Shown here piece by piece: positions 9,658-33,222 of a stretch of 36,571 bases of DNA. This DNA is from Candidatus Doudnabacteria bacterium RIFCSPHIGHO2_02_FULL_42_25 (GTDB lineage Bacteria > Patescibacteriota > Doudnabacteria > UBA920 > O2-02-FULL-48-8). The stretch spans positions 90,309-126,879 of the forward strand of contig MFEQ01000006.1 in NCBI GenBank assembly GCA_001777665.1, in the 5' to 3' direction. How positions within the stretch are numbered: the first letter of the stretch is position 1; each line of letters starts with the position of its first letter. A program made the position numbers and the translations under genes. Below the pieces are notes generated by a model. That model worked only from the letters and a program-made list of their open reading frames with translations, was not told where the DNA came from and searched no databases.

Positions 9658-9758
9658 AACCATTTCGAGCGAGCGATGCGAGGGAGAAATCGCTCTCCGA
9701 GGGTGACCCTCGTAGGAGGGATCTCTCCCCCGGATCAAGTCCGGGGTCGAGATGGGTT
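9658..9758. repeat. REP-like composite palindrome overlapping the fba stop codon
   Basis: AACCATTTCGA...TCGAGATGGGTT ends; internal GGGAGAAATC/GATCTCTCCC, CGAGGGTGACCCTCG and CCCCGGATCAAGTCCGGGG hairpins. Confidence 0.65.
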
Positions 9759-12978: not shown

Positions 12979-12984
12979 ATTAGT

Positions 12985-13049
12985 TCTACGAAAGTACGAA
13001 TTCTCGAATTACGAACTGTTCGTAGTTTCGCAATTTCGTATTTCGTAGA
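12985..13049. repeat. TACGAA x4 / TTCGTA x4 modular inverted repeat, copy 1
   Basis: TCTACGAAAGTACGAATTCTCGAATTACGAAC-T-GTTCGTAGTTTCGCAATTTCGTATTTCGTAGA. Confidence 0.85.
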
Positions 13050-24673: not shown

Positions 24674-24676
24674 AGT

Positions 24677-24760
24677 TTTACTAAATACTAATTGTTACTA
24701 ATTTACTAATCGGTAAAGCTTTAGCTATTCGTATATTCGTACCGATTCGTACTTCGTAAA
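24677..24760. repeat. Modular inverted repeat copy 2 (TACTAA x4 / TTCGTA x4)
   Basis: Fills the rplF-rplR spacer; 77/84 identical to copy 4. Confidence 0.9.
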
Positions 24761-24761
24761 G

Positions 24762-25316
24762 TTATTTCCCGCCACCTACGGCTTTAACGACTTTACCAGC
24801 TTTGCGTCGGATAACTTCACCTTGGTATTTAATTCCTTTGCCTTTGTATGGTTCAGGTTCACGCTTTGATCGGATCACCGCCGCAAATTGGCCTACTGAT
24901 TGGCGATCGATTCCGGAAATTGTGATCGTGTTCTTTTCAACTTTCGCTTCCAACCCTGCAGGAATTTCTAATTCAACTGGATGAGAATATCCTAATTGCA
25001 ACACTAATTTCTTGCCCTGTAATTCTACTTTATAACCGACGCCATTGATTTCGAGAACTTTACTGAAACCTGTGCTGACTCCAGCAACCATGTTGTTAAT
25101 CAATGCCCGGTATAATCCCCACAACGCTCGTTGTTGCTTATTCTCTTCATTGGAAACTTTAACCACAACTTCATTTTCACCTTTTTCTATCTGAACTTTT
25201 GGATGCAAATTCAAAGTCAGCTCACCTTTTGGCCCTTTAACTTTTAGGACTTCAGAGGTTAGATCAACATTGACACCCGATGGAATTGTAACTGGTTTTT
25301 TACCGATTCTTGACAT
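24762..25316 (-). CDS. rplF: 50S ribosomal protein L6
   Basis: MSRIGKKPV, LGYSHPV, PEPYKGKGI. Confidence 0.98.
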   Translation of the reverse strand: MSRIGKKPVTIPSGVNVDLTSEVLKVKGPKGELTLNLHPKVQIEKGENEVVVKVSNEENKQQRALWGLYRALINNMVAGVSTGFSKVLEINGVGYKVELQGKKLVLQLGYSHPVELEIPAGLEAKVEKNTITISGIDRQSVGQFAAVIRSKREPEPYKGKGIKYQGEVIRRKAGKVVKAVGGGK

Positions 25317-25320
25317 AGTT

Positions 25321-25719
25321 TTACCAAATTTGACAAACGACTTCTCCGCCGACTTTTTGCTTGCGGGCTTCTTTGTCTGTCATTAATCCTTTCGAAGTCG
25401 AAATAATCGTGGTCCCGAGGCCTCCCAAAGATTTCGGAATCTGGGTGCGGTTACTGTAAATTCTCTGTCCTGGTTTACTGACTCTCTTGATGCCTGTAAT
25501 CGTGGGTTGACCCTTAGTATCGTATTTCAAAATCAAAGACAATGTTTTAAAGCCATCCACTTCTTTTACATCCACTTGAGCCAGCCAGCCTTCACCTTGC
25601 AAAACTTTCGCCAGATTGTGCTTAAATTTGGAGTAAGGCAAAACCACTTCTGGCTTCTGTGCCATAAGTCCGTTGCGGATGCGGGTTAACATATCGGAAA
25701 TTGTGTCAGACATTGTCAT
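25321..25719 (-). CDS. rpsH: 30S ribosomal protein S8
   Basis: DMLTRIRN, RVSKPGQRIY, STSKGLMT. Confidence 0.97.
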   Translation of the reverse strand: MTMSDTISDMLTRIRNGLMAQKPEVVLPYSKFKHNLAKVLQGEGWLAQVDVKEVDGFKTLSLILKYDTKGQPTITGIKRVSKPGQRIYSNRTQIPKSLGGLGTTIISTSKGLMTDKEARKQKVGGEVVCQIW

Positions 25720-25723
25720 ATAT

Positions 25724-25918
25724 TTACCAGGACGCTTTCGATACTCCAGGGATTTCTCCGTTGGAGGCTAATTCTCTAAAACAAATTCTGCAAATATCAA
25801 AATCTCTCATATATCCATGTTTGCGACCACAACGCCAACAACGCCTGACTATTCGAGTCGAATACTTCGCTTGGGTCCGTGATCTATGGGATTTTATGTA
25901 TTGCGCCTTCGTTGACAT
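25724..25918 (-). CDS. rpsN: 30S ribosomal protein S14, zinc-binding (type Z)
   Basis: RCWRCGR...CRICFRE...PGVSKASW. Confidence 0.96.
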
Positions 25919-25921
25919 AGA

Positions 25922-26461
25922 TTATTCTTTCTGGAACGGGAAACCTAATGATTTTAATAACTCGAGAGCTTGCTTGTCGTCATCTGTAGAAGTCTGAATA
26001 TTTACTTCCAGACCGAATGAGTAGTCAACGTGCTCGCGGATGGTTTCTGGAAATACAATCTGTTCTTTTATCCCAACATTGTAATTACCGTGACGGTCAA
26101 ATTTTTTAGGATCCAGTCCTCGGAAGTCTCGAACACGAGGGAGAGCTACTCGAACTAGCTTTTCTAAGAAATCATACATCCGGTTTCCTCGCAGTGTCAC
26201 CATAACTCCCACCACTTGTCCTTCGCGGATCTTAAATCCTGCAATCGATTTCTTGGCAATAGTTTTAACAGGTGCTTGCCCGGTGATGCGTCGAATGTCT
26301 TCAATAATTGCATCCAGCATTTTCGCATCTTTCAGAGTTTTTCCCACTCCAACATTAACTACGACTTTCTGAATTTTAGGCACAGCCATAGAATTCTTCA
26401 AATTGAACTGTTGCTTGAGTGCAGGTGCTGATTTTTCTTTGTAGATAGTTTTCAGTTGCAT
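25922..26461 (-). CDS. rplE: 50S ribosomal protein L5
   Basis: KSIAGFKIREG, VTLRG, LPRVRDFRG. Confidence 0.98.
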   Translation of the reverse strand: MQLKTIYKEKSAPALKQQFNLKNSMAVPKIQKVVVNVGVGKTLKDAKMLDAIIEDIRRITGQAPVKTIAKKSIAGFKIREGQVVGVMVTLRGNRMYDFLEKLVRVALPRVRDFRGLDPKKFDRHGNYNVGIKEQIVFPETIREHVDYSFGLEVNIQTSTDDDKQALELLKSLGFPFQKE

Positions 26462-26465
26462 ATGA

Positions 26466-26780
26466 TTACATTACCTTTCCGCATTTCTTACACTTGCGCA
26501 AATTACCATTCTCTGTGACTTCATGAGCGACTCTGGTTGGTTTACCACAATTCGGACAGAGCAAAATTACATTCGAGACATTCATCGGAGACGGAAGTTC
26601 CAGTCGTTGACCTTTTTCACCTTTTCGCTTCGCTTTCGAAAATCTAACATGAACATTCAATCCTTCGATGGATAATCGGGCGTTTTTTGGAAACACTTCC
26701 AAAACTTTTCCGGACTTTCCTTTTTCTTTTCCGGATAGAACTTTGACTGTATCGCCTTTTTTAATGTTTAATGAAGCCAT
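26466..26780 (-). CDS. rplX: 50S ribosomal protein L24
   Basis: IKKGDTVKVLSGKEKGK; C-terminal CPNC...CKKC. Confidence 0.96.
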   Translation of the reverse strand: MASLNIKKGDTVKVLSGKEKGKSGKVLEVFPKNARLSIEGLNVHVRFSKAKRKGEKGQRLELPSPMNVSNVILLCPNCGKPTRVAHEVTENGNLRKCKKCGKVM

Positions 26781-26801
26781 ATGCTTTAGTTAATTAAACT
26801 T

Positions 26802-26883
26802 TCTACGAAATTACGAATTTTTACGAAAGTACGAACTGAACCGAGTTCTTTCGTATTTTCGTAACTTTTTCGTAGTTCGTAGA
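26802..26883. repeat. Modular inverted repeat copy 3
   Basis: TCTACGAA..x4 loop TTCGTA..x4 GA, starting immediately after the rplN stop. Confidence 0.88.
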
Positions 26884-27255
26884 TCATACTACTTCCTCTG
26901 CTAAAGATATAATCTTGGTAAACCCCAAGTCGCGAAGTTCACGGGGCATCGGACCAAAAATACGGGTGCCTCTTGGGTCTTGGCTGTCTTTAGTTACCAA
27001 TACTGCGGCATTATCATCAAATCGAATATATGAACCATCGGCTCTGCGGACTTCTTTGCGCGTACGGACGATAACTGCATAAACTTTATCACCTTTTTTG
27101 ACTTGGCCTTTCGGGCTGGCAATCTTCACTGAAGCGGAGATGACATCGCCCAATCTGGCCCAGCGTCGTTTGTTCTTTCCATTCACAGAAAAAGCTGCGA
27201 TCTCTTTCGCACCGGTATTGTCAGCAACTATTAATCTGGTACGTAATTGAATCAT
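26884..27255 (-). CDS. rplN: 50S ribosomal protein L14
   Basis: [25 protein letters not shown]. Confidence 0.98.
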
Positions 27256-27256
27256 A

Positions 27257-27520
27257 TTAGACTACTCTCCAGTTAACTGTTTTACTGTAAGGTTTAACTT
27301 CTTCGATCGTAACTTTCTGGCCAACTGTATATACTTTAGCATCGCCATCGGTGTGAGCTGCATATTTTTTAAACACCTTGTAGCGCTTGTGATATTTCGG
27401 ATGGACTTTTACTGATTCAACTTTAACAACGATGGTTTGAGTCATCTTGTTTGAAGTTACAAATCCTGTAAGTTGTCGCTTTACCCCGTTAGATTTTACA
27501 GTGTTATTATCGTTTGTCAT
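27257..27520 (-). CDS. rpsQ: 30S ribosomal protein S17
   Basis: [28 protein letters not shown]. Confidence 0.95.
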
Positions 27521-27524
27521 AAAA

Positions 27525-27572
27525 TTTACTTTCCCGCGTTGATTTTTATAAAAATCTAACGGGGTTTACTTT
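27525..27572. repeat. 32-bp REP-like hairpin flanked by an 8-bp direct repeat
   Basis: TTTACTTT-[CCCGCGTTGATTTTTATAAAAATCTAACGGGG]-TTTACTTT. Confidence 0.7.
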
Positions 27573-27579
27573 ATCCATA

Positions 27580-27765
27580 TTATTTCTTCTTACCGATAAA
27601 TGTTAAAATTCTTGCTATATCTTGTCTGATGTTCTTCAGCATGTGATTATTTTTCACTTCCCGTGAATGAATCTTGAATGTCAGATCGCGAACTTGTTCA
27701 CGCAATACACCCAGTTGTCTGGTCAATTCGTTCGGTGTCATGTTTTCTAATTCTTTCATCTTCAT
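27580..27765 (-). CDS. rpmC: 50S ribosomal protein L29
   Basis: ELENMTPNEL...KNIRQDIARILT; operon position. Confidence 0.93.
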   Translation of the reverse strand: MKMKELENMTPNELTRQLGVLREQVRDLTFKIHSREVKNNHMLKNIRQDIARILTFIGKKK

Positions 27766-27769
27766 AAAC

Positions 27770-27853
27770 TTTACTAATTACTAATTATTACTAATTTACT
27801 AATCGTTAAAGCATTGGCTATTCGTATATTCGTACTGATTCGTATTTCGTAAA
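27770..27853. repeat. Modular inverted repeat copy 4 (TACTAA x4 / TTCGTA x4)
   Basis: Fills the rplP-rpmC spacer. Confidence 0.9.
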
Positions 27854-28267
27854 TCACTTCTGCTCCTTTGTCACGAATCGAGTTTTGACCGGCAACTTGT
27901 GAGATGCCAACCGCATAGCTTCTTCAGCCTGAACCGGGGTTACGCCATCCATTTCAAATAAAATTCGTCCTTTTTGAACTACAGCAACAAAGTGATCTAC
28001 AGCACCTTTTCCAGCTCCCATCGGTGATTCATTACCATGAGCAGTAATTGGTTTATCCGGGAAAATTCGAATCCAAATTTTACCACCACGTTGGATGTAT
28101 CGAGTCATAGCGCGCCTAGCTGCTTCGATCTGACGCGAAGTCACCCAGCTGTTTTCCAGCGATTTCAGTCCAAAGCTGCCGAAGGCGACAAAATTTCCAG
28201 ACATGGCCTTGCCTTTAGATGATCCGCGATGATGCTTTCGATGTTTAACTTTCTTTGGAATAAGCAT
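27854..28267 (-). CDS. rplP: 50S ribosomal protein L16
   Basis: [25 protein letters not shown]. Confidence 0.98.
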
Positions 28268-28276
28268 AAATAATCC

Positions 28277-28936
28277 TTAAACTTTAAGCTTTAACTTGTT
28301 GCCTTCAAAAACTTCGCCTTTGTTGATCCAAACTTTAATACCGATCGTGCCGTATGTAGTAAATGCTGTAACTCTAGCAAAATCAATATTCGCTCTCAAA
28401 GTATGCAAAGGAAGCTTACCTTTGAACAATCTTTCGGATCGGGCAATTTCAGCTCCACCTAATCGGCCTGAACATTCGATACGAACACCAATCGCTCCGG
28501 ATTCCATAACTTTCTCAATCGAAGCTTTCATCGCACGTCGGAAAGCAATACGTCGTTCAATCTGGTCTGCAATGTCTTGGGCTATAACTTGGGCTTGAAG
28601 ATTTACATCCTTGATTTCTTCGATATTGATCTTCATTTCCAATTTATCAAGTTTCAAATGCTTCAAAATCTTCTTTTTCAACTCTTCGATCCCGCCACCA
28701 CCTTTTCCGATAATCATTCCAGGTTTCGTGGTTTTGATATTTATATAAAGTCTGTTGCTGTATCGTTCGATATCGACGCGAACCAATCCGGACTTTTTCA
28801 AAGCATTACCAAGGAAAGCTCGAATTTTCGTATCTTCAGCAAGAAGAGTTGCAAAACCAGTCTTGGTCAGCCATCGTGACTTCCAAGTGTCTGTAATTTT
28901 CAGTCTTAAACTATTTGCGTTTACTTTATGTCCCAT
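28277..28936 (-). CDS. rpsC: 30S ribosomal protein S3
   Basis: PGMIIGKGG, SGRLGGAEIAR, PLHTLRANID. Confidence 0.98.
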   Translation of the reverse strand: MGHKVNANSLRLKITDTWKSRWLTKTGFATLLAEDTKIRAFLGNALKKSGLVRVDIERYSNRLYINIKTTKPGMIIGKGGGGIEELKKKILKHLKLDKLEMKINIEEIKDVNLQAQVIAQDIADQIERRIAFRRAMKASIEKVMESGAIGVRIECSGRLGGAEIARSERLFKGKLPLHTLRANIDFARVTAFTTYGTIGIKVWINKGEVFEGNKLKLKV

Positions 28937-28940
28937 AAAA

Positions 28941-29486
28941 TTATTGACCCGATCTCCTGTTAAATAATCGACGTTTCAAACTAATCTTTTGCTGCTTCAT
29001 CTTTTCATCAGATTTCGGAGCTTGTTTCGGGACATTCTGCTTTTCTGACGCTTGACCAGCTTCAGGAAGAGCTACGGCTTTTGGTCGAAGTGAGAAAACT
29101 GATCTAGATTTTTTCTTGGATTTACCAGCTCTGGATTCTAATACGACACTAATATGACTAGTTCTCTTTCGTTCTACGAATGCTCGTCCTTGTGCTCTTG
29201 GCGCATATCTTTTATAAACTGGTCCGCCATCTACAGTTAGAGATTTAATAAACATATCATCTTTATTCATATTGAAATTATGCACGCCATTGGCAATAGC
29301 AGAATTGATCGCTTTGCTTAGTGGAAGAGCAGCGTTCTTCGAAGAAAATCTAAGCTGTTCCAATGCATCAGAAACATGCATTTTTCTAACCAAATCAGCG
29401 ACAAGTCGAAGCTTTCGCGGAGAGACATGAATGTATCTTGCGAACGCTTTAACCTCGGTATGCAGTTTGGGATTCTTTTCAGCCAT
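28941..29486 (-). CDS. rplV: 50S ribosomal protein L22 with a C-terminal extension
   Basis: SPRKLRLVADLVR, PRAQGRA, RTSHI; about 60-aa basic tail. Confidence 0.96.
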   Translation of the reverse strand: MAEKNPKLHTEVKAFARYIHVSPRKLRLVADLVRKMHVSDALEQLRFSSKNAALPLSKAINSAIANGVHNFNMNKDDMFIKSLTVDGGPVYKRYAPRAQGRAFVERKRTSHISVVLESRAGKSKKKSRSVFSLRPKAVALPEAGQASEKQNVPKQAPKSDEKMKQQKISLKRRLFNRRSGQ

Positions 29487-29494
29487 AAATTTAT

Positions 29495-29573
29495 CTACGA
29501 ACTTACGAAATTTTTACGAAAATACGAAAGAAAGCTATTTTCGTATGTTCGTATTCTTTTCGTACTTTCGTAG
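29495..29573. repeat. Modular inverted repeat copy 5
   Basis: CTACGAA..x4 loop TTCGTA..x4 G, in the rpsS-rplV spacer. Confidence 0.88.
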
Positions 29574-29576
29574 CCA

Positions 29577-29912
29577 TTACTTTTTGGGCTCCTCTTTAGC
29601 AGCAGTTGTGGCACGTCTTTCAGCGTCAGCAGCTGCCAATGCTTCATCTTTTGCCATCTTACCACCATGTCTAGTAAATTTCCGAGTTGGAGCAAACTCA
29701 CCGAGTTTGTGGCCAACCATGTTTTCTGAAGGAATAACTGTAATAAAATTCTTACCCTGGTGGACGAGGAAAGTCATGCCAACCATTTCAGGAAAAATCG
29801 TAGAATCACGTGACCAAGTTTTAATTTGAACTTTAGAACCTGGTTTGTTCTTCTGAACTTTCTCTAATAATTTTGGATCGATAAAAGGTCCTTTTTTCAG
29901 TGATCGTGACAT
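29577..29912 (-). CDS. rpsS: 30S ribosomal protein S19
   Basis: [26 protein letters not shown]. Confidence 0.98.
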
Positions 29913-29913
29913 A

Positions 29914-30747
29914 TTATTTGCTTCGTCTCTTAACTATAAATCTAGAACTTGCTCTCTTTGGGTTACGGGTGCGGACACCAAGTGCGTGTTTACCCCAAGG
30001 AGTTTTCGGATATTTAAGCCCAATTGGGTTATGACCTTCTCCACCACCATGAGGGTGATCCACAGGGTTCATAGCTTTACCGCGTACAGATGGACGAATT
30101 CCCATGTGTCGAGTGCGTCCAGCTTTACCGATTCTAACATACATCCAGTCGACATTTGAAACTTGCCCGAGTGTAGCATAAGCATTGCCAGCAACTTTTC
30201 GAATTTCGCCTGATGGCATTTTCAATAAAACGTGCTCGCCTTCACTAGCGGAAATAATAGCGTAGTTCCCTGCGGCTCTAGCGATTTGACCACCACGTCC
30301 AGCCAAAATTTCTATACTGTGGACATTGGTTCCTACCGGGATATTTTTGAGCATCATACGATTCCCGACTTTCACTTCAGTTCGAGGAGCTGTGAGTAAA
30401 ATAGTTCCGACTTTCACTCCATCTGGAGCGAGGATGTATCGCTTCTCACCATCACGGTATGCAAGCAGGGAAATAAAAGCACTTCGTCCTGGATCATATT
30501 CGAGAGTCTGAACTTTTGCAGGAATATTCAACTTTTCACGCATAAAATCAATCATCCGGACTTTTTGCTTGTGTCCACCACCTTGGTGTCTGGTGGTAAT
30601 CAAACCGCGATTGTTTCGGCCGCCGGTTTTTTTCTTAGACACAATCAAAGCATTCGGAGCTTTGACTCGTTTTCTTAGAACAGAATAATCCGTAACTGAA
30701 TGAATTCTGCGTCCTGGTGAAGTTGGTTTGTAGATTTTGATAGCCAT
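29914..30747 (-). CDS. rplB: 50S ribosomal protein L2
   Basis: [29 protein letters not shown]. Confidence 0.98.
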
Positions 30748-30748
30748 A

Positions 30749-31180
30749 CTAGATTCCTTCGGCTAAGCCGGAAATTTTTTCACCTTGTTTTAATGTCACG
30801 ATGGCCTTCTTCCAATCTTGAGTGCGGCCCATGACTCGTCCCTGTCGGCGGGATTTACCTTGAACATTCGCGATATTTACTTTAACGACATGGACATCAT
30901 AAACTTTTTCTATAGCTTTCTTAACTTCAATTTTATTCGCGTTGCGATCAACTCGGAATACATATCTGCCGGTAGTCGAAAACATATTAGTCTTTTCCGA
31001 CAAATGATGGTTTTTCAAAATTCTGTGTGCTGAACCGGTGTCCTCTTTCAGTACAACCGGCTTGCCCTCCGTAGCTTTAGCGGAGGAGGGCTCTTGGACC
31101 ATATCCAAGACATTCTCTTCTTTCTTCTTCTTACTCCCCTTGTCCCCTTTATTCCCTTTTATTCTATCGAGAAGTCCCAT
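30749..31180 (-). CDS. rplW: 50S ribosomal protein L23 with an N-terminal extension
   Basis: SEKT, ANKIEVKKAIE, WKKAIVTL. Confidence 0.95.
   Translation of the reverse strand: MGLLDRIKGNKGDKGSKKKKEENVLDMVQEPSSAKATEGKPVVLKEDTGSAHRILKNHHLSEKTNMFSTTGRYVFRVDRNANKIEVKKAIEKVYDVHVVKVNIANVQGKSRRQGRVMGRTQDWKKAIVTLKQGEKISGLAEGI
31061..31091. repeat. In-frame REP-like palindrome within rplW
   Basis: CTTGCCCTCCGTAGCTTTAGCGGAGGAGGGC; stem CCTCCG/CGGAGG; encodes PSSAKATEGK. Confidence 0.55.
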
Positions 31181-31808
31181 ATGTTTTTTCTATTACAGTT
31201 AAGGCATCTTTCAAAACCACCACATCGTACTTCATCAAATCAACAACATTCAACTGATTTGCGTATAAAATTTTCACATTGGCAAGGTTTCTGACAGCGC
31301 GTTCCAATTCAGCATTTTTCGCATCCATCACTACCAAATATTTTTTACCCAAACCAGCTTTGGTCGCGAAATCATTCAATCTTTTCGAAATTTCTTTAGT
31401 CTTCGCAGTTTTATCCAAATTTTCGAGCACAACTAATTTCTTATCATTTAATTTATCAGTCAAAATAGTAAACAAAGCTTTACGCCATGCAGAGCGGTTC
31501 ATTTTCAAAGACCAATTTCGATCTGATCGTGGTCCAAATGTAATTCCACCGTGTCGCCAAATTGGAGATCGGATAGAACCAGCTCGAGCGCGTCCAGTAC
31601 CTTTTTGCTTCCAAGGCTTTCGGCCACTACCTGCGACTTCACCTCGGTTTTTGGTATGAGCTAGTGCTGATCTTGCGTTGGATAGTTGGATTCGAACAGC
31701 CGAATGCACCAAATTCGCGTCGATTTTTTCCACGCCAAAAATCTTTGGATTGAGATCCAAATCTGTAACTTTGTCACCTGTTTGGTTATAGACGACGACT
31801 TTGGGCAT
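31164..31808 (-). CDS. rplD: 50S ribosomal protein L4
   Basis: TKNRGEVAGSGRKPWKQKGTGRARAGS, FGPR. Confidence 0.98.
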   Translation of the reverse strand: MPKVVVYNQTGDKVTDLDLNPKIFGVEKIDANLVHSAVRIQLSNARSALAHTKNRGEVAGSGRKPWKQKGTGRARAGSIRSPIWRHGGITFGPRSDRNWSLKMNRSAWRKALFTILTDKLNDKKLVVLENLDKTAKTKEISKRLNDFATKAGLGKKYLVVMDAKNAELERAVRNLANVKILYANQLNVVDLMKYDVVVLKDALTVIEKTYGTSR

Positions 31809-31811
31809 ATG

Positions 31812-32471
31812 TTATTTAATTAACCCTGGATAATCGGTGAAAATTCCATCGACACCGATCTTTTTCATTCGTTTTAATTCCTTCTCGGAATTGACTGTCC
31901 AGACGTAGATATTTTTCGCAAACTTGCGTAAATATTTAACAACCTGATCAGTCACGAACAAATTTCTTGGATGGATCGAATACAACTGCAAATTTCTAGT
32001 AAGCTGCATCATAATCGGCAAGAAATAAAATTTTCTCACCGGAATAATTAATCCCAGATGGACTTTTCCATCCAAAGCTCTGATTTTCTTGAGAACCCCC
32101 GGATAAAATGAGGAAATCAGAACCCTGTGCGGAAAATTTTTAATTTTGTTTAGAACTTTTTGCTCGATGCCTTGGACTTTGATTTCGATATTAACATCAA
32201 CGTCGATGGCGGCTAAGGCTTCGTCGAGAGTTGGAATCAATCGATACCGAGAAATGGCTCGCAATTCTGCCAAAGTACTTTTGGCAATGGCTTGTCCATC
32301 ATCGAACAATCTTTTCAATGTTCGGTCGTGGAAAAGTACTAGTTCTCCATCTCTTGTTACCCGTATATCGAGCTCGACCATTTTCACCCCATGCTCAATT
32401 GCTTTTTTCAAAGAACGGATTGTGTTCTCCGGTTCAAACCCTGATGCTCCTCTGTGCCCGATTACTAGCAT
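31812..32471 (-). CDS. Glycerophosphodiester phosphodiesterase (GDPD/GlpQ-UgpQ family)
   Basis: IGHRGASG..PENT, ELDI, HDRTL, NIEIK, VWTVN, GVDGIFTDYP. Confidence 0.93.
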   Translation of the reverse strand: MLVIGHRGASGFEPENTIRSLKKAIEHGVKMVELDIRVTRDGELVLFHDRTLKRLFDDGQAIAKSTLAELRAISRYRLIPTLDEALAAIDVDVNIEIKVQGIEQKVLNKIKNFPHRVLISSFYPGVLKKIRALDGKVHLGLIIPVRKFYFLPIMMQLTRNLQLYSIHPRNLFVTDQVVKYLRKFAKNIYVWTVNSEKELKRMKKIGVDGIFTDYPGLIK

Positions 32472-32479
32472 AAATCCGG

Positions 32480-33055
32480 TTATTTACGCATCGCCTGAAT
32501 CTTAACTATTCCACCATTTGCGCCTGGAACTGCTCCTTTTATTGCTATTAAATTCCGTGCTGCGTCGACATCCACTACTTCCAAATTCGTCACTGTTCTA
32601 GTGCCGCCCATACGTCCGGCCATGTGCAAACCTTTTCTGACGTGCTGTGGGAAACGGCCTCCGATAGCTCCGACTGCGCGAGGGTGATCATGTCCGTGAG
32701 ATGCTGGCGCTCCGTGGAAGTGCCATCGTTTAACTGGGCCTGCAAACCCCTTTCCTTTCATCTCTGCGGTAACTTTAACCTTATCACCAATAATAAACGT
32801 ATCAGCTTTGATCTCATCACCAGTGCTGTAGCTATCTTTATCATCAGTTCGGAATTCAACTAACTTTTTAAATTTATTGCCGGTTTTCTTTTTACCAAAT
32901 CCAACCTGAACAGCAGTGTATTTATCTTTGTCCATGGTTCGAACCAATGTCACTTTAACTGGACCCGCCTTCAAAATAGTTACCGGAACTACGATACCTT
33001 TGTCGGTAAACATCTGAGACATCTTCAATTTTTGAGCAATTATGAATTTGGCCAT
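32480..33055 (-). CDS. rplC: 50S ribosomal protein L3
   Basis: VPVTIL, KGKGFAGPVKR, MAGRMG, KGAVPG. Confidence 0.97.
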   Translation of the reverse strand: MAKFIIAQKLKMSQMFTDKGIVVPVTILKAGPVKVTLVRTMDKDKYTAVQVGFGKKKTGNKFKKLVEFRTDDKDSYSTGDEIKADTFIIGDKVKVTAEMKGKGFAGPVKRWHFHGAPASHGHDHPRAVGAIGGRFPQHVRKGLHMAGRMGGTRTVTNLEVVDVDAARNLIAIKGAVPGANGGIVKIQAMRK

Positions 33056-33057
33056 GA

Positions 33058-33221
33058 CTTTACTAATTACGAATTTTTACCAATATACGAATGGGTTTTT
33101 AAAAAACCGACCAGATCCCCTTTAATAAAGAAACCTGGTCGGTTCTTCAAGATTGGCGATATCCTGGGGGATCTTGACCCAATCTATTCGTATATTCGTA
33201 CTGATTAGTAATTCGTAAAGT
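33058..33221. repeat. Modular inverted repeat copy 6 enclosing a two-hairpin structured segment
   Basis: Arms 33058-33092 and 33186-33221; inner stems 33105-33144 and 33150-33185. Confidence 0.85.
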
Positions 33222-33222
33222 T

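Follow-up and report, generated by a model that had tools for sequence, protein, structure and literature searches.

Gene-less palindromic elements in stop-to-start gaps of a Doudnabacteria ribosomal-protein operon as probable translation-neutral insertions

Several of the gaps between stop and start codons in the ribosomal-protein operon of Candidatus Doudnabacteria bacterium RIFCSPHIGHO2_02_FULL_42_25 are occupied by palindromic sequences built from repeated TACGAA and TTCGTA words. The stretch of DNA analysed here, referred to as the window, is 36,571 nucleotides (nt) long and corresponds to C6:90309-126879 in a genome of 849,155 bases and 8 contigs. It contains six such sequences, five in the operon and one between split transketolase genes. 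The reading favoured here, which is considered probable but well short of certain, is that they are gene-less copies of a directional palindromic insertion element, specialised in stop-to-start gaps and tolerated as translation-neutral. The element fills the stop-to-start space in the sense orientation of the operon, and its persistence in essential operons would be owed to translation neutrality, as predicted folding suggests.

In the sense of the mRNA, the element reads (T/G)C, four TACGAA words with spacers of approximately 2, 5 and 2 nt, a loop, and four TTCGTA words. The arm words follow the form TACNAA, four per arm and 8-11 nt apart, and 15-16 of 25 copies are followed by a GATAA-type tail. 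Complementarity is lacking between the spacers of the two arms, and the stem therefore consists of four helices of 6-8 bp with small loops between them. Stems of the well-paired (B-type) copies contain approximately 30 base pairs interrupted by small internal loops. The weak-stem (A-type) copies carry TACGAA in the 5' arm and TTAGTA in the 3' arm, so that each word contains a G.A mismatch. In relatives, the word may have G, T, A or C as its fourth base, which is frequently unmatched between the arms.

All six copies in the window lie on the minus strand, and fold strength was expressed as a z-score obtained from RNA folding against dinucleotide shuffles. Two unsplit A-type copies were found, each filling a gap of 88 nt from the stop to the next ATG. 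In the rplF-rplR gap (24674-24761), four TACGAA and four TTAGTA words form an inverted repeat with 1 nt before and 3 nt after it, and the predicted fold of -12.4 kcal/mol (z = -0.41) was equalled or bettered by 55 of 200 shuffles. The copy in the rplP-rpmC gap (27766-27853) follows the TGA stop at a distance of 0 nt and ends 4 nt short of the ATG; its fold of -8.6 kcal/mol (z = +0.20) was equalled or bettered by 111 of 200 shuffles, and the two copies share 92% identity. Among the B-type copies, that of the rplN-rplX gap (26781-26883, 103 nt) has its stem at 26802-26883, 0 nt after TGA, followed by a 21-nt tail at 26781-26801, with a fold of -32.5 kcal/mol (z = -6.21). The rpsS-rplV gap (29487-29576, 90 nt) holds a stem at 29495-29573 that is preceded by TGG (3 nt) and followed by the 8-nt tail ATAAATTT, with a fold of -29.9 kcal/mol (z = -6.08). 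The third B-type copy belongs to a 60-nt subfamily and occupies the 71-nt tktN-tktC gap (12979-13049), outside the range 24674-33222. Its stem at 12985-13049 starts 0 nt after TAA and is followed by a 6-nt tail (-25.1 kcal/mol, z = -5.20), and the identity of the two genes is given by Pfam matches to Transketolase_N and to Transket_pyr/Transketolase_C. The sixth copy, in the rpsJ-rplC gap (33056-33222, 167 nt), is split, as described below.

The operon is ordered tuf, rpsJ, rplC, the GDPD gene, rplD, rplW, rplB ... rplO, secY. The positions and spacings set out in the original prediction, which was made from the letters of this DNA, were confirmed. The palindrome begins 0-3 nt past the upstream stop in all six copies, and removal of the inverted repeat leaves 4, 4, approximately 4, 6, 11 and 21 nt. 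The remaining junctions of the operon are short or overlapping, from -17 to 9 nt, with rpmC-rpsQ (59 nt) as the sole exception. Shine-Dalgarno (SD) sites are mostly absent, as had been claimed: SD-like 4-mers precede 18.6% of 796 open reading frame (ORF) starts compared with 9.8% at an intragenic control position. Positions -4 to -6 upstream of ORF starts are 44-48% A. Both the low SD share and these A-rich positions fit initiation that relies on open, A-rich leaders. The label of hairpin was less general than supposed, as it suits rplN-rplX, rpsS-rplV, tktN-tktC and, at z = -9.5, rpsJ-rplC, but not the rplF-rplR and rplP-rpmC copies. In the well-paired rplN-rplX, rpsS-rplV and tktN-tktC copies, the stem base adjoins the stop.

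Across the genome, 37 hexamer clusters were merged to 35 loci, the six window copies included. Gene contexts were taken from our own simple ORF picks, in which certain upstream genes (for two such copies) comprise only 54-68 codons. Placement, examined for randomness relative to stops, proved to be non-random. Intergenic regions with a residual spacer of at most 30 nt account for 3.1% of possible intergenic insertion points and for 14 of the 29 element-bearing regions, compared with approximately 0.9 regions (29 x 0.031) expected by chance. The neighbouring genes are co-directional at 25/29 element-bearing regions. Among 33 copies with gene context, 20 have the upstream stop within 11 nt of the first word, and 27 have the downstream start within 25 nt of the last word. 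Where co-directional spacers are long, the element is start-proximal in 15/17 cases (8/9 here and 7/8 in four other genomes; sign test, approximately 0.002), and therefore the steadier association is with the next start codon, while tight junctions necessarily make the element adjoin the stop as well. The element is also directional. In 27 of 31 informative copies, the A-rich strand of its spacers coincides with the sense strand of the genes on either side (binomial p = 3.4e-5, Fisher p = 4e-4). The same marker, the A-T skew of the spacers, was concordant in 7/8 copies of the related genome G001 and 3/3 of G054.

For comparison, the operons of 20 other genomes of the order, each from a different genus, were assembled with that of the window to give 21 operons and 349 junctions; tuf-rpsJ and rpsJ-rplC were left out, being long in every genome. 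Junction length was at most 12 nt in 220 cases, 13-44 nt in 55, 45-300 nt in 69 and greater than 300 nt in 5. The 74 expanded junctions are filled by several unrelated repeat families, and which junction is expanded differs by genome, none being filled consistently; the same junctions in relatives without the insert mostly measure -1 to 11 nt. The arm pattern itself was detected in 42 of 121 genomes of the order (29 of 63 genera), and a reversed control pattern in 0. The window rpsS-rplV copy and the G008 copy at rplN-rplX agree at 84 of 89 aligned bases (94%), a match that takes in the 5' TGG and the 3' TAAATT; the window rplN-rplX copy and the G001 copy at rpsN-rpsH share 93% identity. The pair that shares a junction, rplN-rplX in the window and in G008, is only 78% alike. 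Flanking genes in these comparisons show 70-78% identity overall and 45-55% when third codon positions are taken alone. Because copies at different junctions in different genera are 93-94% alike despite this third-position divergence, the alignments indicate that the insertions are independent and fairly recent, and that copies are non-orthologous by junction.

The same alignments bear on the nucleotides left around the stem, which had been taken for native spacer in the original prediction. The 5' TGG and the tail motifs reappear in copies that occupy different junctions in other genomes, and for this reason at least part of the leftover spacing appears to be the element's own tail in the two well-paired copies compared. 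The 21 nt after the rplN-rplX stem, previously singled out as an exception, were correctly measured; they are explained by the tail motif AATTAACTAA, which both this copy and its G001 counterpart carry.

Neutrality may be achieved in two ways. In B-type copies, the stem of approximately 75 nt would fold on itself, and the A/U-rich tail would keep the start codon as accessible as it is at a native junction. In A-type copies, the whole 3' arm with its UUAGUAA repeats would act as an unstructured A/U-rich leader. From -15 to +12, the predicted unpaired probabilities of B-type copies (0.54, n=19), A-type copies (0.48, n=5) and native tight junctions (0.52, n=120) do not differ significantly. Weak-stem variants are also located in the rpoB-rpoC and rpmI-rplT junctions. 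At least two variant (TACTAA/TTAGTA) words are present in six copies, five of which are found between genes for translation or transcription (rplF-rplR, rplP-rpmC, rpsJ-rplC, rpoB-rpoC and rpmI-rplT). The shortest tails, of 4-6 nt, are found in the copies with at least two variant words (p = 0.012 for the five unsplit copies). As A-type copies with z close to 0 also occupy rpoB-rpoC and rpmI-rplT, the stem is judged dispensable. A stable stem would then be one way of being harmless and not a device needed for termination-reinitiation.

The original prediction assigned the stem precisely that role, proposing that it joins stop and start for reinitiation and that the hairpin was selected to keep coupling in an SD-poor genome. 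This explanation is regarded as unlikely, but it accounts for a regularity among relatives. Of the 69 junctions of 45-300 nt, 41 hold a strong single stem (z <= -3, covering at least 60% of the gap), 13 are intermediate and 15 have z > -2. In the 41, the median distance is 1 nt from the stop to the stem (at most 3 nt in 31) and 11 nt from the end of the stem to the ATG, with the 5' offset below the 3' offset in 37. The scarcity of SD sites, the position of the two rpsJ-rplC arms, one beside the stop and one beside the start, on either side of an 83-nt native leader, and the predicted lack of effect on start-site accessibility also speak for it. Against these stand the two of six window copies that fold no better than shuffles, the weak-stem copies in the tightest junctions of essential operons, and the 15 expanded junctions with z > -2. 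Copies in tight junctions are not more stable than those in loose ones (median -27.8 vs -28.25 kcal/mol, p = 0.31), and of 25 copies, 18 fold less stably in the mRNA sense than in the antisense and 6 more stably (Wilcoxon p = 0.018). The nucleotides left unpaired, with a median of 13 nt, exceed the median of 4 nt in 275 unexpanded junctions (p = 1.4e-7), and they belong at least partly to the element. In 15 of the 17 long co-directional spacers described above, the element sits beside the start and distant from any stop. Moreover, a ribosome with its A site on the stop codon covers roughly the next dozen nucleotides, so that a stem base 0-3 nt away must open at termination; stop and start are then not juxtaposed. 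A role of folding as keeper of coupling is consequently unsupported.

Three other functions for the element were considered and rejected. An SD site displaced by the element and restored by folding does not fit, as the SD-like words found 8-15 nt before some stops would still be more than 20 nt from the ATG in the folded form. For an outward promoter of leaderless mRNAs, 19 sigma-70-like sites were counted compared with 19.3 expected, none of them in the five operon gaps. An intrinsic terminator or attenuator is not indicated either: the stems are AT-rich with GAUAA-type tails, and a terminator scan returned none in the five operon gaps. The sole terminator-like hairpin, in rpsJ-rplC, is that of the native core.

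A variant that combines mobility with a function is a transposable intercistronic adaptor, in which the stem starts at a stop codon, the element's own A/U-rich tail reaches the following start codon, and a ribosome ending at the foot of the stem is handed across to the next gene in a manner resembling ribosome shunting. We consider it quite unlikely. If it were true, essential operons could accommodate a selfish nuclease gene, an empty cassette or, as in rpsJ-rplC, a leader already in place, and polar effects would be avoided. In ribosome shunting, a stop just before a stem precedes initiation just after it. Cauliflower mosaic virus shunting, the intervening sequences of 23S rRNA (with an internal ORF) and the SD-start hairpins of phage T4 are all self-contained stems tolerated by folding away. 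The TACGAA copies differ in lying in mRNA spacers and not in rRNA helices, and in that two of six lack a stable stem.

In full-length relatives of the element, a nuclease gene lies between arms of this kind. Two copies outside the window, C4:6265-6737 and C6:299769-300232, are split, with a GxxExxY / PDDEXK_3 ORF exactly between the arms. The enclosed ORF matches PF13366 (E = 2.9e-30) and TIGR04256 (E = 1.9e-31) and belongs to the PD-(D/E)XK nucleases. The arms of these gene-bearing copies are 82-83% complementary and 397 nt apart, and the ORF is co-oriented with the host genes; in the C6:299769-300232 copy it is frameshifted in an A8 run. TACGAA/TTCGTA words and their spacing are common to gene-less and gene-bearing copies, and because of these shared features the six window sequences are treated as putative gene-less members of the GxxExxY-cassette class of palindromic elements. 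The genome contains three more GxxExxY genes with other flanking words, two of which have arms of other word types on both sides. In other genomes, inverted arms above the 99th percentile of shuffles flank 30 of 37 relatives of the nuclease. For these 30, a same-strand ORF starts within 15 nt after the 3' arm in 25, an ORF ends within 15 nt before the 5' arm in 17, and both hold in 16. The nearest relatives of the nuclease, 82% and 81% identical, come from a record labelled Saccharibacteria and from a Doudnabacteria metagenome-assembled genome, respectively.

Searches around this cassette were otherwise negative. In the 21 ribosomal-protein operon regions (the window and 20 relatives), tblastn gave 0 matches to full-length GxxExxY copies at E <= 1e-3, and no sequence match for the nuclease was found among solved structures. 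A 2012 superfamily survey gives the function of PDDEXK_3 as unknown (PMC3424549). No publication on palindromic tandem-word elements enclosing a GxxExxY gene was found, and nothing pertinent was present among the top-10 matches for palindromic or intergenic repeat elements of the Candidate Phyla Radiation. A paper on CRISPR-associated reverse transcriptases that names GxxExxY appears to be unrelated. Long rplB-rpsS inserts in relatives were examined as possible GxxExxY copies and excluded, as the insert is a lipoprotein gene. This lipoprotein-like gene (MKK start, AAC/ASC motif, F(K/R)FTK end) is located at the rplB-rpsS junction of loci L004, L006, L007, L011 and L016, and a 64-nt remnant of it is retained in L012. 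The third of the additional GxxExxY genes in this genome forms an in-frame domain of a lepA-like GTPase ORF (C6:20667-21023), just before the DTPGHVDF motif; it has a word array on one side only, and four GTCTGCGT words are translated into the protein.

The copy in the rpsJ-rplC gap is a split A-type element. Its 5' arm (33184-33222, minus strand) directly follows the rpsJ stop, and its 3' arm (33056-33100, minus strand) has its last arm word 4 nt before the rplC ATG, the arm pair 33057-33097 / 33181-33221 being 80% complementary. Between the arms are 83 nt (33101-33183, minus strand) with two hairpins, a small one (ATTGG..GATCC..GGATATCGCCAAT) and a long, terminator-like one that carries a U run; the z-score of this gap is due mainly to this core. 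The same core without TACGAA arms was recovered in 9 relatives by pattern search and is visible in further relatives, and its long stem shows compensating changes between genomes. Because the core exists without arms in relatives, it is a native leader and not a nested insertion, and it is possibly an attenuator or an operon boundary. No description of the rpsJ-rplC leader was found. Rfam gave only sub-threshold scores for this region (rncO, 20.5 bits against a cut-off of 43; sraL, 23.6 against 39) and zero matches at the gathering threshold over the whole window.

Long stems in a polycistronic transcript may also serve as processing sites. In such an explanation, the well-paired copies are RNase III-type sites that split the operon transcript into separate messages, comparable with the intercistronic sites of phage T7, Correia elements and rRNA intervening sequences. 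The B-type stems, with approximately 30 pairs and small internal loops, have a suitable form, and an RNase III gene is present in the genome (PF00636, 90.6 bits). By analogy, Correia elements are described in PMC2649163 as able to bind RNase III and to be cleaved or protected, and as able to create promoters. Nevertheless, A-type copies lack a double-stranded stem and no sequence feature demands cleavage, and we regard this explanation as improbable. Excision of the element as an intervening sequence, also raised in the original prediction, has a further difficulty: no mechanism is known for excision and rejoining of bacterial mRNA. Two locations elsewhere in the genome count in favour of processing. 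A TACGAA element (C3:76069-76142) ends 8 nt short of the start codon of rnc, the RNase III gene, and three palindromic elements lie just 5' of the 23S rRNA 5' end (C1:3713-4201). One of these three is composed of ATCGGA / TCTGAY words, which would pair via G.U only on the plus strand.

Among known systems, the E. coli REP elements (repetitive palindromes outside genes) and their BIME composites resemble the window elements in being dispersed extragenic palindromes, often right after stops in operons. REPs are short and GC-rich, whereas the window elements are AT-rich, 60-80 nt long and built of four words per arm. REP hairpins within 15 nt of a stop are reported to stall ribosomes and to lower upstream translation in E. 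coli, according to the summary of Liang, Rudd and Deutscher 2015 in PMC12306157. With stems here 0-3 nt after stops, this analogy lends some support to expression tuning by the host, in which a stem after the stop would lower upstream translation or alter stability and so set subunit ratios. Such tuning is nonetheless very unlikely, as the filled junction differs by genome, the 74 expanded junctions are occupied by many unrelated families with none consistent, and copies within one junction are non-orthologous. Nor do the TACGAA elements represent the REP/REPIN of a RAYT (Y1 HUH transposase) in this genome, a possibility rejected because the flanks of the sole Y1_Tnp (RAYT-like) gene (C3:58410-59021, 203 aa) carry a different hairpin. 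The GC-rich hairpin ACGAGGGTGACCCTCGT is found on both sides of this gene (C3:58390-59052) and in 8 copies in the genome, one at approximately 9698-9712 of the window; the nearest TACGAA element is 17 kb from the Y1_Tnp gene. The gene and its hairpin form a separate REP/RAYT-like system.

Correia elements of Neisseria share with the window elements the character of co-transcribed palindromic inserts beside genes. They differ in that the TACGAA elements have no target duplication and, in the five operon gaps, no sigma-70-like promoter. Neisseria REP2 and the Borrelia inverted repeats offer a parallel, in that the A/U-rich tail of the TACGAA element forms the last nucleotides before the ATG; they differ in that no SD site or promoter is evident in the TACGAA elements. 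With regard to the classical features of miniature inverted-repeat transposable elements, terminal inverted repeats and many dispersed copies are present, but target-site duplication and an origin from an insertion sequence with a known transposase are not.

Several points weigh against a mobile, translation-neutral element. Neutrality depends on predicted folding, and mobility is deduced from distribution and identity. No target-site duplication was detected in the sense-oriented flanks of 25 copies, and no known transposase lies within the element, the only ORF between such arms being the GxxExxY nuclease. The contigs of four DNA runs, searched at 85% likeness or above, contained no empty-site allele, and no insertion or excision event was seen. 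In these runs, same-strain contigs keep the elements unchanged and contigs break at the repeats; joints across 33092-33185 derive from other copies with short loops. The orientation marker was concordant in only 2/7 copies of G036 and in 12 of 18 replicate loci overall, and is thus subfamily-specific. Strong constraint rather than recent transfer could explain the high identity between genera. Finally, two arms bracketing an older native leader in rpsJ-rplC are not explained by a single simple insertion.

Other features of the operon regions were recorded in addition. The rpmC-rpsQ junction (window 27521-27579, minus strand, 59 nt) contains an unrelated small palindrome, CCCGTTAGATTTTTATAAAAATCAACGCGGG, flanked by the direct repeat AAAGTAAA, which may represent a target duplication belonging to another element. 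A second family of palindromes, approximately 140 nt long (ACCCCCACACCAGAACGAGC ... GCTCGTTTGGTGTGGGGGT, AAAT, ATG), occurs at varied ribosomal-protein junctions of loci L004, L011, L012 and L021; all 6 listed copies have the same orientation, start directly after the stop and end 4-7 nt before the ATG. The GDPD gene (glycerophosphodiester phosphodiesterase; Pfam GDPD E = 1.5e-43) lies between rplC and rplD (window 31812-32471, minus strand) with junctions of 8 and 3 nt, and 12 of the 18 relatives with coverage of the site carry this insertion too. The rplW (L23) ORF (window 30749-31180, minus strand) encodes 143 aa, of which the Pfam match spans residues 54-136 only; the N-terminal extension of approximately 50 residues is rich in Lys, Glu and Gly, and the ORF shares 17 nt with the end of rplD.

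Ribosomal-protein operons rank with the tightest and best-conserved gene arrays known, and yet in this lineage 74 of 349 junctions in 21 of them are filled by oriented palindromic inserts from several unrelated families. New in the present study are the element-borne 3' tail, the weak-stem variant, the near-identity across genera and the tests of coupling. If the favoured reading of a translation-neutral insertion is correct, a class of selfish elements would be specialised in the few nucleotides between stop and start, and the large, unstudied GxxExxY nuclease family would acquire a concrete and testable genomic role. In annotating ultra-small bacteria, conserved hairpins between ribosomal genes are not by default to be taken as regulatory RNAs. 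The presence of folding and non-folding copies within one operon would furthermore provide a natural test of intra-operon initiation in SD-poor bacteria.

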